A stretch of 64,000 nucleotides of DNA. Origin: Escherichia coli (GTDB lineage Bacteria; Pseudomonadota; Gammaproteobacteria; Enterobacterales; Enterobacteriaceae). Made by a program: the position numbers and the translations under genes. Location of the stretch: the NCBI RefSeq assembly GCF_003790525.1, contig NZ_CP033635.1; one strand, 5' to 3'. Shown here piece by piece: positions 1-5,212 of the stretch (the first letter of the stretch is position 1; the number at the start of each line of letters is the position of its first letter). The notes beneath the pieces were generated by a model. The model worked only from the letters and a program-made list of their open reading frames with translations. It ran no database searches and was not told the origin of the DNA.

Positions 1-538
<538 letters not shown>

Positions 539-556
539 TCTCGATTTATATCGAAC

Positions 557-580
557 AAAGGGCCTGCGGGCCCTTTTTTC
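557..580 (+). terminator. Rho-independent terminator of ompC (GGGCC-loop-GGCCC hairpin followed by a T-run)
   Basis: GC hairpin aaagggcctgcgggccc followed by tttttt, directly after the ompC stop. Confidence 0.6.
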
Positions 581-649
581 ATTGTTTTCAGCGTACAAAC
601 ACAGTTTTTTGGTGTACTCTTGCGACCGTTCGCATGAGGATAATCACGT

Positions 650-1705
650 ATGGAAATAAGCTTTACCCGCGTGGCACTGCTGGCTGCCGCGCTCTTCTTT
701 GTTGGTTGCGATCAAAAACCACAACCCGCCAAAACCCACGCTACTGAAGTTACCGTTCTTGAAGGCAAAACCATGGGTACCTTCTGGCGTGCCAGCATCC
801 CGGGCATTGATGCCAAACGCAGTGCCGAACTTAAAGAAAAGATTCAGACCCAGCTGGACGCCGACGATCAGCTGCTTTCGACCTATAAAAAAGATTCCGC
901 GCTGATGCGCTTTAACGACTCGCAAAGTTTGTCGCCGTGGCCGGTAAGTGAAGCGATGGCCGATATCGTCACCACCTCGCTGCGCATTGGCGCAAGGACC
1001 GATGGTGCGATGGATATAACCGTCGGGCCGCTGGTGAATCTGTGGGGCTTTGGCCCGGAACAACAGCCGGTTCAAATTCCGAGTCAGGAACAGATCGATG
1101 CGATGAAAGCCAAAACCGGCTTACAGCACCTGACGGTGATTAATCAGTCCCACCAGCAATATCTGCAAAAAGACCTGCCGGATTTATATGTCGATCTCTC
1201 TACCGTCGGTGAAGGTTATGCGGCGGATCATCTGGCACGCTTGATGGAGCAGGAAGGGATTTCCCGCTATCTGGTGTCGGTGGGCGGCGCGCTGAACAGC
1301 CGTGGTATGAACGGTGAAGGCCAGCCGTGGCGAGTGGCGATTCAAAAACCAACCGATAAAGAAAACGCGGTTCAGGCGGTGGTGGATATCAACGGCCACG
1401 GTATCAGCACCTCCGGCAGCTATCGCAACTATTACGAACTGGACGGCAAACGTCTTTCTCATGTTATCGATCCGCAAACCGGGCGTCCCATTGAACATAA
1501 TCTGGTATCCGTGACGGTGATTGCCCCGACGGCGCTGGAAGCCGACGCCTGGGACACAGGTTTGATGGTGCTCGGGCCGGATAAAGCCAAAGAAGTTGTT
1601 CGCCGGGAAGGGCTGGCGGTCTATATGATCACCAAAGAGGGCGATAGCTTTAAAACCTGGATGTCGCCGCAGTTTAAAAGCTTCCTTATCAGCGAAAAAA
1701 ATTAA
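650..1705 (+). CDS. apbE: FAD:protein FMN transferase (ApbE/Ftp family lipoprotein)
   Basis: 351-aa ORF with lipoprotein signal and lipobox (LLAAALFFVGC); recognised as E. coli ApbE. Confidence 0.93.
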   Translation: MEISFTRVALLAAALFFVGCDQKPQPAKTHATEVTVLEGKTMGTFWRASIPGIDAKRSAELKEKIQTQLDADDQLLSTYKKDSALMRFNDSQSLSPWPVSEAMADIVTTSLRIGARTDGAMDITVGPLVNLWGFGPEQQPVQIPSQEQIDAMKAKTGLQHLTVINQSHQQYLQKDLPDLYVDLSTVGEGYAADHLARLMEQEGISRYLVSVGGALNSRGMNGEGQPWRVAIQKPTDKENAVQAVVDINGHGISTSGSYRNYYELDGKRLSHVIDPQTGRPIEHNLVSVTVIAPTALEADAWDTGLMVLGPDKAKEVVRREGLAVYMITKEGDSFKTWMSPQFKSFLISEKN

Positions 1706-1745
1706 AGCGCAAGATTGTTGGTTTTTGCGCGATGGTGACCGGGCA
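1697..1745 (+). promoter_or_regulatory. ada promoter region with Ada box (AAAGCGCA) overlapping the apbE stop codon
   Basis: Sequence aaaaattAAAGCGCAagattgttggtttttgcgcgatgg about 70 bp upstream of the ada start; the Ada-box consensus is read by eye. Confidence 0.45.
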
Positions 1746-1778
1746 GACTAAAGGCTATCCTTAACCAGGGAGCTGATT

Positions 1779-2843
1779 ATGAAAAACGCCACATGCTTAA
1801 CAGACGATCAACGCTGGCAATCTGTCTTAGCCCGCGACCCGAATGCCGACGGCGAATTCGTTTTCGCCGTGCGCACCACAGGTATCTTTTGCCGTCCGTC
1901 TTGCCGCGCCAGACATGCCTTGCGGGAAAATGTCTCCTTCTACGCAAATGCCAGCGAGGCACTCGCCGCCGGATTTCGCCCCTGCAAACGTTGTCAGCCA
2001 GACAAAGCCAATGCCCAGCAACATCGCCTTGATAAAATTACCCACGCCTGCCGACTTCTGGAACAGGAAACGCCTGTAACGCTGGAAGCCTTAGCCGACC
2101 ATGTGGCGATGAGTCCGTTCCATCTGCATCGGTTGTTTAAAGCGACTACCGGAATGACGCCTAAAGCCTGGCAACAGGCCTGGCGCGCTCGCCGTTTGCG
2201 CGAATCGCTGGCGAAAGGGGAGAGCGTGACGACGTCTATTCTTAACGCCGGATTCCCCGACAGCAGCAGTTACTACCGCAAAGCTGACGAAACGCTGGGC
2301 ATGACGGCTAAACAATTCCGTCACGGTGGCGAAAATCTGGCGGTGCGTTACGCGCTGGCTGATTGTGAGCTGGGCCGTTGCCTGGTGGCAGAAAGTGAGC
2401 GGGGGATTTGCGCGATATTACTGGGCGATGATGACGCGACACTAATCAGCGAGTTACAGCAGATGTTTCCCGCTGCCGACAGCGCGCCTGCCGATCTGAC
2501 GTTTCAGCAACATGTGCGTGAAGTGATCGCCAGCCTCAATCAACGCGATACGCCGCTGACGTTACCGCTGGACATTCGCGGCACTGCTTTTCAGCAACAA
2601 GTCTGGCAGGCACTGCGCACGATACCTTGCGGTGAAACCGTCAGTTATCAGCAACTGGCTAATGCCATCGGCAAACCGAAAGCGGTACGGGCTGTTGCCA
2701 GCGCCTGTGCCGCCAACAAGCTAGCTATCGTTATACCTTGTCATCGGGTGGTCCGTGGTGATGGCACACTTTCCGGTTACCGCTGGGGCGTGTCGCGCAA
2801 AGCGCAACTGCTGCGCCGCGAAGCTGAGAATGAGGAGAGGTAA
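1779..2843 (+). CDS. ada: Bifunctional transcriptional activator / O6-methylguanine-DNA methyltransferase Ada
   Basis: 354-aa ORF; N-terminal Cys-rich methylphosphotriester acceptor region (FCRPSCRARH...PCKRCQP), AraC-type HTH, C-terminal PCHRV active-site motif. Confidence 0.95.
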   Translation: MKNATCLTDDQRWQSVLARDPNADGEFVFAVRTTGIFCRPSCRARHALRENVSFYANASEALAAGFRPCKRCQPDKANAQQHRLDKITHACRLLEQETPVTLEALADHVAMSPFHLHRLFKATTGMTPKAWQQAWRARRLRESLAKGESVTTSILNAGFPDSSSYYRKADETLGMTAKQFRHGGENLAVRYALADCELGRCLVAESERGICAILLGDDDATLISELQQMFPAADSAPADLTFQQHVREVIASLNQRDTPLTLPLDIRGTAFQQQVWQALRTIPCGETVSYQQLANAIGKPKAVRAVASACAANKLAIVIPCHRVVRGDGTLSGYRWGVSRKAQLLRREAENEER

Positions 2844-3493
2844 TGTTGGATCTGTTTGCCGATGCTGAACCGTGGCAAGAGCCACTGGCGGCTGGTGCGG
2901 TAATTTTACGGCGTTTCGCTTTTAACGCTGCGGAGCAACTAATCCGCGATATTAATGACGTTGCCAGCCAGTCGCCGTTTCGCCAGATGGTCACTCCAGG
3001 CGGATATACCATGTCGGTGGCGATGACCAACTGTGGGCATCTGGGCTGGACGACCCATCGGCAAGGTTATCTCTATTCGCCCATTGATCCGCAAACAAAT
3101 AAACCGTGGCCCGCCATGCCGCAGAGTTTTCATCATTTATGTCAACGTGCGGCTACGGCGGGGGGCTATCCAGATTTCCAGCCAGATGCCTGTTTGATCA
3201 ACCGCTACGTTCCTGGCGCGAAACTGTCGCTGCATCAGGATAAAGACGAACCGGATCTGCGCGCGCCAATTGTTTCTGTTTCTCTGGGCTTACCCGCGAT
3301 TTTTCAATTTGGCGGCCTGAAACGAAATGATCCGCTAAAAAGATTGTTGCTGGAACATGGCGATGTGGTGGTATGGGGCGGTGAATCGCGGCTGTTTTAT
3401 CATGGCATTCAACCGTTGAAAGCGGGGTTTCATCCACTCGCCGGCGACTGCCGCTACAACCTGACATTCCGTCAGGCAGGTAAAAAAGAATAA
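2843..3493 (+). CDS. alkB: Alpha-ketoglutarate/Fe(II)-dependent DNA dioxygenase AlkB
   Basis: 216-aa ORF, start overlaps the ada stop by 1 nt (translational coupling); contains the LHQDKDE motif. Confidence 0.95.
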   Translation: MLDLFADAEPWQEPLAAGAVILRRFAFNAAEQLIRDINDVASQSPFRQMVTPGGYTMSVAMTNCGHLGWTTHRQGYLYSPIDPQTNKPWPAMPQSFHHLCQRAATAGGYPDFQPDACLINRYVPGAKLSLHQDKDEPDLRAPIVSVSLGLPAIFQFGGLKRNDPLKRLLLEHGDVVVWGGESRLFYHGIQPLKAGFHPLAGDCRYNLTFRQAGKKE

Positions 3494-3568
3494 AAATAAG
3501 AATTATTATTGCTGTGCGCGCGAAGATGTTTAAACTGCGGGCTGTAATTCATTGTCCGGGTTTTCTGC

Positions 3569-5212
3569 ATGGAACTTCTTGTACTTGTCTGGCGGCAGTA
3601 TCGCTGGCCATTTATCAGTGTGATGGCGCTAAGCCTCGCCAGTGCGGCATTAGGCATTGGCTTAATTGCTTTTATCAATCAGCGCCTTATCGAAACGGCG
3701 GATACCAGTCTGCTGGTGTTGCCGGAGTTTCTGGGATTATTGTTGCTGTTGATGGCAGTCACTCTCGGATCGCAACTGGCGCTCACCACTTTGGGGCATC
3801 ACTTCGTTTACCGACTGCGTAGTGAATTTATCAAGCGGATTCTGGATACCCACGTCGAGCGCATTGAACAACTTGGTAGCGCTTCGTTGCTGGCGGGGTT
3901 AACCAGCGATGTGCGCAATATCACCATTGCTTTTGTGCGTCTGCCGGAACTGGTGCAGGGGATCATTCTCACTATCGGTTCCGCGGCGTATTTGTGGATG
4001 CTGTCGGGCAAAATGTTGCTGGTAACGGCTATCTGGATGGCAGTCACCATCTGGGGCGGTTTTGTGCTGGTGGCGCGGGTGTACAAACATATGGCGACCC
4101 TGCGTGAAACCGAAGATAAGCTGTACACGGATTTTCAAACCGTACTCGAAGGGCGCAAAGAGCTGACTCTGAACCGGGAACGCGCCGAGTATGTGTTTAA
4201 CAACCTCTACATTCCTGATGCGCAAGAGTATCGCCATCATATTATCCGCGCAGACACCTTCCATCTTAGTGCCGTGAACTGGTCAAACATCATGATGCTG
4301 GGCGCTATCGGCCTGGTGTTCTGGATGGCGAACAGTCTCGGTTGGGCTGATACCAACGTTGCCGCGACCTATTCGTTGACGCTGTTGTTCCTGCGTACGC
4401 CGCTGCTTTCGGCGGTTGGCGCATTACCGACGCTGCTGACGGCGCAGGTGGCGTTTAACAAGCTGAACAAATTCGCGCTCGCGCCTTTCAAAGCAGAGTT
4501 TCCGCGTCCGCAGACGTTTCCCAACTGGCAAACGCTGGAGCTGCGCAATGTTACGTTTGCTTATCAGGATAACGCGTTTTCCGTTGGGCCGATTAACCTC
4601 ACCATCAAACGTGGCGAACTGCTGTTTCTGATTGGTGGCAACGGTAGTGGAAAATCGACGCTGGCGATGTTGCTGACGGGCTTGTATCAGCCACAAAGCG
4701 GCGAAATCTTGCTGGATGGCAAACCTGTCAGCGGCGAACAACCGGAAGATTATCGCAAACTGTTTTCGGCAGTGTTTACCGATGTCTGGCTGTTCGATCA
4801 ACTGCTGGGGCCGGAGGGTCAACCCGCTAACCCGCAACTGATTGAGAAGTGGCTGGCGCAACTGAAAATGGCTCATAAGCTTGAGTTAAGCAACGGGCGT
4901 ATTGTTAACCTGAAGTTATCAAAAGGGCAGAAAAAACGCGTCGCGCTGTTGCTGGCGCTGGCAGAAGAACGCGATATTATCCTGCTGGATGAATGGGCGG
5001 CGGATCAGGACCCACACTTCCGCCGTGAGTTTTATCAGGTGCTGCTGCCGCTGATGCAGGAGATGGGTAAAACCATATTCGCCATCAGTCATGATGATCA
5101 TTACTTTATCCACGCTGACCGCCTGCTGGAAATGCGCAACGGGCAACTTAGCGAGCTGACAGGCGAAGAGCGCGATGCTGCTTCGCGTGATGCCGTTGCC
5201 CGGACGGCATAA
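3569..5212 (+). CDS. yojI: ABC exporter, fused permease/ATPase (microcin J25 efflux YojI)
   Basis: 547-aa ORF; N-terminal TM domain and C-terminal ABC ATPase with Walker [10 protein letters not shown]. Confidence 0.92.

Follow-up and report, generated by a model that had tools for sequence, protein, structure and literature searches.

Gene organization of the apbE-ada-alkB locus

The window analyzed here is a stretch of 64,000 nucleotides from the Escherichia coli contig NZ_CP033635.1. Its first 5 kb contain the 3′ part of ompC, which ends at 537, followed by apbE, ada, alkB, and yojI, all on the plus strand (Table 1). RefSeq annotates the order apbE-ada-alkB-yojI, and the order in K-12 MG1655 is identical, on the minus strand. 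The terminator behind ompC has a hairpin of about -17 kcal/mol and corresponds to a strong Term-seq 3′ end of K-12 at 2311605(-). At the other end of the unit, the start of alkB shares bases with the stop codon of ada (TAATG).

The ada product kept Cys38, Cys42, Cys69, Cys72, Arg45, Arg71, Phe114, His115, Arg118, and Cys321 intact. These include the residues of the Cys4 zinc site with the methyl acceptor Cys38, as well as the DNA-reading residues R45, R71, F114, H115, and R118.

The junction between apbE and ada was found in nearly all E. coli. A 601-nt query spanning it matched 5421 of 5426 complete E. coli genomes, with the annotation always apbE on one side and ada on the other, and was 100% identical to E. 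coli strain 165. A 46-nt segment around the Ada site showed at least 95% identity in all 5421 genomes; in about half of them, the 600 nt around the junction were merely 90-95% identical.

Table 1. Features of the apbE-ada-alkB locus, in coordinates of the window
Feature	Position	Strand	Basis
ompC intrinsic terminator (hairpin 557-576 and T run)	557..583	+	Terminator scan; upstream boundary of the apbE unit
apbE (ftp), FAD:protein FMN transferase	650..1705	+	ORF; Pfam ApbE, E=9e-84; RefSeq annotation
Last three apbE codons GAA AAA AAT (Glu-Lys-Asn), A-rich	1694..1702	+	Sequence; adjoins and enters the Ada site
Ada-binding site AATTAAAGCGCAA (AAT-N6-GCAA)	1700..1712	+	Pattern search; published A/B-box definition
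apbE stop codon TAA	1703-1705	+	ORF list
Classical Ada box octamer AAAGCGCA	1704..1711	+	Motif search
Inverted repeat GCGCAAGA / TTTTGCGC	1707..1730	+	RNA fold: 8-bp hairpin, 8-nt loop
Conserved block GATTGnnGGTTTTT downstream of the B box	1713..1726	+	Alignment A2: G1713 invariant, Ts at 1722 and 1724 at least 90%
Candidate -10 hexamer CAGACT	1744..1749	+	Conservation only: cAnnnT, A1745 invariant, C1744 and T1749 at least 90%
Alternative -10 TAAAGG, start near 1761	1749-1754	+	Candidate
Zone of candidate ada transcription start	1755..1762	+	Spacing from the candidate -10s; tiling-array boundary at about 1759
Conserved TAnnCTT	1756-1762	+	Alignment A2
ada Shine-Dalgarno GGGAG, 6 nt before ATG	1768..1772	+	Sequence; alignment A2: G1769 invariant, G1772 at least 90%
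ada	1779..2843	+	ORF; Pfam Ada_Zn_binding, HTH_AraC, and methyltransferase domains (DNA_binding_1)
alkB	2843..3493	+	ORF; Pfam 2OG-FeII_Oxy_2
yojI	3569-5212	+	ORF list

The Ada-binding site overlaps the end of apbE

An earlier sequence-only reading of this DNA had named the genes apbE and ada-alkB, placed an Ada box octamer over the apbE stop codon, and described the ada promoter as packed into the last codons of apbE and a 73-bp spacer. The gene names proved right by Pfam domains and RefSeq annotation. The sequence and the ORF list confirmed the octamer position and the spacer (1706..1778, with the ada ATG at 1779) to the base. The identity of AAAGCGCA as an Ada box agreed with the published ada promoter (PMC3788762, PMC4437013, PMC6505713), and the packing of the promoter was upheld.

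According to the Ada-DNA structure, six bases separate the two parts of the Ada site, the A box AAT and the B box GCAA (PMC4437013; PMC3788762). The 13-mer AATTAAAGCGCAA is the K-12 ada box itself, located 66 nt upstream of the ada start (PMC6505713 Table 7). By this definition, the overlap with apbE is larger than first noted. The octamer has only 2 nt in common with the stop codon, and the full site extends from the stop into the last sense codon: the A box (1700-1702) is the Asn351 codon, the N6 stretch contains the TAA, and the B box occupies 1709-1712. A second, inverted Ada site at TTGC (1725-1728) was considered and rejected, because no ATT stands six bases away as such a site requires.

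The window was compared with K-12 from 1640 to 1800. Six differences were found, none of them in the 13-mer and two in the apbE-ada spacer, which is identical at 71 of 73 positions. The spacer differences are C at 1730 (T in K-12) and A at 1747 (C in K-12); the latter is common to E. albertii and the other E. coli sampled (L039).

Core promoter and transcription start of ada

Directly downstream of the B box, the conserved block at 1713-1726, which covers the -35 side, is likely where RNA polymerase and the remainder of Ada make contact. A generic scan found no consensus-like sigma-70 promoter, which is expected of an activator-dependent promoter. The -10 candidates and the likely start zone were taken from conservation and spacing (Table 1). 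On the K-12 tiling array, the constitutive apbE segment gives way to the MNNG-induced segment at about window position 1759, resolved to 7-14 nt.

Methylated Ada occupies the region from -60 to -40. Conservation suggests a start near 1756-1758, with which the array boundary at about 1759 agrees; the Ada site would then lie at about -58 to -44, in keeping with the known binding region. In work of Landini and Volkert from 1995, the -60 to -40 region is said to act as an UP-like contact for the alpha subunit of RNA polymerase. TATCCT (1756-1761) is conserved, but it was disfavored as the -10 element: the leader would be 11 nt long and the Ada site would lie at about -68 to -56, a poorer fit to this region. 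It was kept only as an alternative. Published start-site data were also searched. The Cappable-seq supplement held no entry for an ada start at 23104xx-23116xx (PMC4782308), and the SMRT-Cappable-seq supplement made no mention of apbE, ada, or alkB.

Transcription termination between apbE and ada

The sequence-only reading had seen no obvious terminator hairpin between apbE and ada, and this observation held. A scan that does find the ompC terminator returned no intrinsic terminator between 700 and 2880. One 8-bp hairpin is present, with arms at 1707-1714 and 1723-1730 and a 66-nt fold of -17.6 kcal/mol (z = -2); the C at 1730 that distinguishes the window from K-12 closes its stem by a G-C pair. 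This hairpin was rejected as a terminator, since GAUGGUG follows it in place of a U tail. Among the 34 apbE-ada genomes listed, hairpins beside T runs fell mostly between -2 and -8 kcal/mol and were weak next to the ompC hairpin at about -17 kcal/mol. Rfam covariance models gave no match at an E-value up to 1 in positions 1-4000 of the window.

The spacer contains 23 G vs 14 C, and C/G ratios were 0.6-0.8 in 78-nt windows starting at 1661-1721. By composition it is G-rich and so is not rut-like. K-12 Term-seq with or without bicyclomycin recorded no 3′ end or Rho region from apbE to alkB (PMC7815308), a silence that may merely reflect low apbE expression, at about 1 log2 unit above background on the array. 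The sequence-only reading had named an apbE 3′ end mapped ahead of the Ada box, with no read-through, as the sign of insulated units; no such end appeared in the datasets examined. Neither an intrinsic terminator after apbE nor a Rho-dependent terminator in the spacer was found, with low expression limiting the Term-seq part of the latter result.

On the K-12 tiling array, a minus-strand segment classed as "similarly expressed" spans 2308447-2309581 (U00096.2), which corresponds to window positions 625-1759. The apbE signal therefore runs from about 25 nt before the ATG to 54 nt past the stop codon and covers the Ada box. The boundary at 1759 marks a switch from the "similar" to the "induced" class and not a measured 3′ end. 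The signal is weak (log2 10.3 and 10.0 vs a background of 9.0) and unaffected by MNNG (10.34 vs 9.98, probability of difference 0.00).

The basal levels of the two products have been determined at the native locus: about 1 Ada per cell, made at about 1 molecule per generation, and no AlkB in about 80% of uninduced cells (PMC6818145; PMC8643705). Productive read-through, if any, must therefore be very small. Such scarcity, in spite of detectable apbE RNA and a good ada Shine-Dalgarno sequence, speaks for insulated units, as does the 8-bp hairpin; apbE transcripts would then end in the spacer or in early ada, by Rho, by hairpin-assisted termination, or by processing, and the overlap would have no transcriptional consequence. 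The hairpin, however, lacks a U tail, the T-run hairpins of the 34 genomes listed are weak, the spacer is poor in C, Term-seq shows neither a 3′ end nor a Rho region under either condition, and the array signal continues 54 nt beyond the stop. On balance, we regard insulation as a possible but rather unlikely explanation. Occlusion of the ada ribosome-binding site within a read-through RNA was also considered and is not supported, because the fold of 1640-1800 was no better than that of shuffled sequences (z = -0.30).

Conservation of the Ada site across genera

One genome per species was scanned with a conserved ApbE peptide motif, which yielded at least 120 loci; Salmonella was absent from this sample. 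About 78 of the loci listed were true ApbE orthologues from Enterobacterales. In 34 of those listed, all from Enterobacteriaceae, apbE is followed by ada. Among them are Escherichia, Citrobacter, Enterobacter, Leclercia, Lelliottia, Kluyvera, Klebsiella oxytoca, Kosakonia, Phytobacter, Pseudocitrobacter, Trabulsiella, Cedecea, Mangrovibacter, and Shimwellia.

In 29 of the 34 apbE-ada loci listed, AAT-N6-GCAA starts 3 nt before the apbE stop codon, exactly as in the window, and 2 of the 34 have one mismatch in the site. Three further loci (L048, L049, and L062) encode an ApbE ORF that is two codons (6 nt) shorter; the site stands at the same aligned place and is wholly intergenic. The exact form AAAGCGCA was restricted to Escherichia and two other lineages in the sample, and most genera carry AAAAAGCA. 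In an alignment of 26 sequences from about 20 lineages (A2, mean column identity 64%), columns 1701-1704, 1706, and 1709-1713 were invariant and form the Ada-site block. The neighboring coding third positions and the remaining spacer vary across the same lineages.

The last apbE codon was AAT in 30 of the 34 apbE-ada loci listed and AAC in none. The ApbE tail ends in KN in 26 of the 34, with AAA AAT as the final two codons in most. In the apbE-alkB loci without ada, the ApbE tails differ in 22 of the 22 listed. Since AAC never replaces AAT where ada is present, and the tails are free to vary where it is absent, the constraint acts on the DNA and dictates the Lys-Asn end of ApbE.

The geometry of the site raises the question of antagonistic coupling, either with bound methylated Ada as a roadblock to polymerase arriving from apbE or through occlusion of the ada promoter by transcription of apbE. 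The argument for it is purely geometric: transcription of apbE has to pass over the site, whose register relative to the stop codon is conserved. The apbE signal, however, is unchanged by MNNG, apbE transcription is weak, and the three lineages with the earlier stop have kept the site, so it is the site that is conserved and not its overlap with the stop. Regulatory coupling of this kind is therefore very improbable.

Motif frequency by itself does not distinguish the site. In the window, AAAGCGCA was observed 9 times vs 5.2 +/- 2.1 expected, and AAT-N6-GCAA 6 times vs 16.8 expected. By these counts the motif alone does not rise above chance, and its significance comes from identity with K-12 and from conservation; evidence was therefore drawn from conservation instead. 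A chance motif near a gene start, with the true regulatory site elsewhere, would fit the occurrence of both motif definitions at or below chance frequency, but the identity with the characterized K-12 site and the invariance of the block across about 20 lineages effectively refute it.

Relatives without ada and read-through from apbE

The synteny ompC-apbE-...-alkB-yojI is kept in Enterobacteriaceae and Erwiniaceae. Among the loci listed, 22 have neither ada nor an Ada box (Pantoea, Erwinia, Rosenbergiella, Tatumella, Mixta, and Pluralibacter gergoviae). The apbE stop codon and the alkB start lie 3-45 nt apart in these loci, with the alkB ribosome-binding site in the gap, and in one case the two genes overlap as TGATG. 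This arrangement looks like an apbE-alkB operon. At some Serratia loci, where other genes lie behind apbE, an obvious GC-rich hairpin was seen by eye just past the stop and was not scored by the scan.

The loci together place apbE in three apparent settings: followed by a terminator where its unit ends, fused to alkB where ada is absent, and, in genomes with ada, bearing the Ada-dependent promoter on its last codon.

Read-through from apbE across the Ada site is likely, and read-through into ada, which the sequence-only reading had proposed, is plausible. It is consistent with the lack of a terminator, a spacer that is not rut-like, the absence of a Term-seq 3′ end or Rho region, an array signal extending 54 nt past the stop codon, and relatives that have alkB directly behind apbE. 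A further step would be to trace basal Ada, in whole or in part, to apbE transcripts that fail to terminate, and in the end to leakage past the ompC terminator, instead of to the unactivated ada promoter; the arrangement would then be a remnant of an Erwiniaceae-like apbE-alkB operon. We consider this doubtful. If it were true, the rare, random production of Ada from apbE read-through would seed the positive feedback and decide which cells respond late to alkylation.

Proposed mechanism and significance

The feature is the canonical, already known promoter of the alkylation-repair genes ada and alkB, and no novel type of element. It has the properties of an Ada-regulon promoter of the ada/aidB type: an Ada site, a cognate Ada encoded alongside, and ada-alkB as the genes driven. 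The joint explanation, in which an ada-alkB promoter whose conserved site is used by both Ada and apbE is accompanied by low-level read-through, is held with high confidence.

Ada is established to move a methyl group from a DNA methylphosphotriester onto its own Cys38. Methylated Ada would then bind AAT-N6-GCAA at 1700-1712 and recruit sigma-70 RNA polymerase to the weak core promoter just downstream, and this recruitment would switch on ada itself and alkB. Because nothing terminator-like lies between the units, weak constitutive transcription of apbE most probably continues at a low level over the Ada site and on into ada-alkB. Ada-dependent induction by methylating agents is known for the near-identical K-12 promoter (PMC8643705; PMC6505713), and ada, alkB, and yojI of K-12 are induced by MNNG as one region (PMC6505713).

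This is a textbook element, and the main value of the analysis is a clean confirmation. What it adds is modest. The A box of the Ada site doubles as the last codon of apbE, a dual coding conserved across Enterobacteriaceae in which the regulatory site fixes the Lys-Asn tail of ApbE. No insulation signal between apbE and ada was found in any genome sampled, which together with the Erwiniaceae layout, where alkB directly follows apbE, gives an evolutionary context for low constitutive transcription of alkB and ada. The origin of the basal Ada, at about one molecule, becomes testable; how far individual cells differ in the adaptive response is set by this basal level.

Comparison with known systems

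The closest known system is the K-12 Pada. It shares with the window the locus, the 13-mer AATTAAAGCGCAA, the distance of 66 nt from the B box to the ada ATG, and the flanking genes, and differs by the two spacer substitutions at 1730 and 1747.

Promoters embedded in the 3′ end of a preceding gene are a common compact arrangement in bacteria. The locus shares with them regulatory DNA within an upstream, co-oriented coding sequence and no terminator between the genes. It differs in that the shared bases are few (the last codon and the stop) and can be identified base by base, and in that the effect on the ApbE tail can be read against genomes without ada.

The E. coli aidB promoter follows the same AAT-N6-GCAA logic and belongs to the same activation class, in which the Ada site precedes -35 and activation depends on the alpha subunit (PMC3788762; PMC4437013), but it belongs to another locus and is absent from this stretch. 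Its lower affinity for Ada is due to an A instead of C before the B box (PMC4437013).

The alkA promoter, with the form AAAGCAA, is matched in sequence by most of the Enterobacteriaceae ada promoters sampled, which carry the alkA-like AAAAAGCAA and not AAAGCGCA (PMC3788762). The alkA site abuts or overlaps -35, and both forms of Ada can activate there (PMC4437013), whereas the ada site at this locus lies further upstream.

Conservation of the Ada site at the apbE-ada junction

The Ada site (AAT-N6-GCAA, window 1700-1712; A box AAT, B box GCAA) was compared with the end of apbE across Enterobacterales apbE loci from a one-genome-per-species scan. At the apbE-ada junction of three loci (L048, L049, and L062), the ApbE reading frame ends two codons earlier (..LLSE). 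The Ada site keeps its aligned position there and is wholly intergenic. Judged by this alignment, the conserved element is the Ada site, not its overlap with the apbE stop codon.

The surrounding region, window 1400-2000, is unusually diverse among E. coli: identity reached at least 99% in just 51 of the 5421 genomes and was only 90-95% in 2783. Over a 46-nt stretch around the Ada site, identity was 95% or more in every genome (5421/5421).

Sequence features near the Ada site and within ada
Feature	Window position	Strand	Location
Inverted repeat GCGCAAGA/TTTTGCGC	1707-1730		Bridges B box and -35 side
Second AAAGCGCA(A) copy	2799-2806	+	Within ada, 37 nt upstream of the alkB ATG

The last base of the inverted repeat is C in the window versus T in K-12 and E. 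albertii, and its closing pair is thus G-C. Palindromes around the T run sit elsewhere in other genera; Citrobacter youngae, for one, has ATTGCGGGTT..AACCCGCAAT. The second AAAGCGCA(A) copy is coding sequence (..RKAQL..), with no A box at the 6-nt distance, and the total of AAAGCGCA in the window was at chance level.

Loci lacking ada

The ada gene is missing between apbE and alkB in Erwiniaceae and Pluralibacter gergoviae (loci L012, L013, L016, L020, L027, L029, L030, L032, L033, L050, L056, L057, L067, L068, L076, L079, L083, L098, L110, L112, L119, and L121). These loci were compared over the apbE stop codon and the next 80 nt, and no Ada box was present in that interval. The alkB start lies 3-45 nt downstream of the apbE stop, and in L057 the two overlap as TGATG. 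This arrangement looks like an apbE-alkB(-yojI) operon; if so, alkB would be constitutive there. A separate locus, L117 (uncultured Cedecea sp.), carries neither ada nor alkB, and yojI follows apbE directly, about 170 nt downstream.

Transcription of apbE and yojI

No consensus-like sigma-70 promoter for apbE was found in the 65-nt gap after the ompC terminator (window 577-649, terminator to ATG), and this terminator is very strong. In the K-12 tiling array, the apbE segment starts approximately 25 nt upstream of the apbE ATG (PMC6505713). Transcription of apbE may arise from a weak promoter or from leakage through the ompC terminator.

On the + strand, the alkB-yojI spacer (window 3494-3568) contained no terminator-like site. 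The MNNG-induced region in the K-12 tiling array covers ada, alkB, and yojI (PMC6505713), so alkylation may switch on yojI, a microcin-efflux gene, together with ada and alkB.
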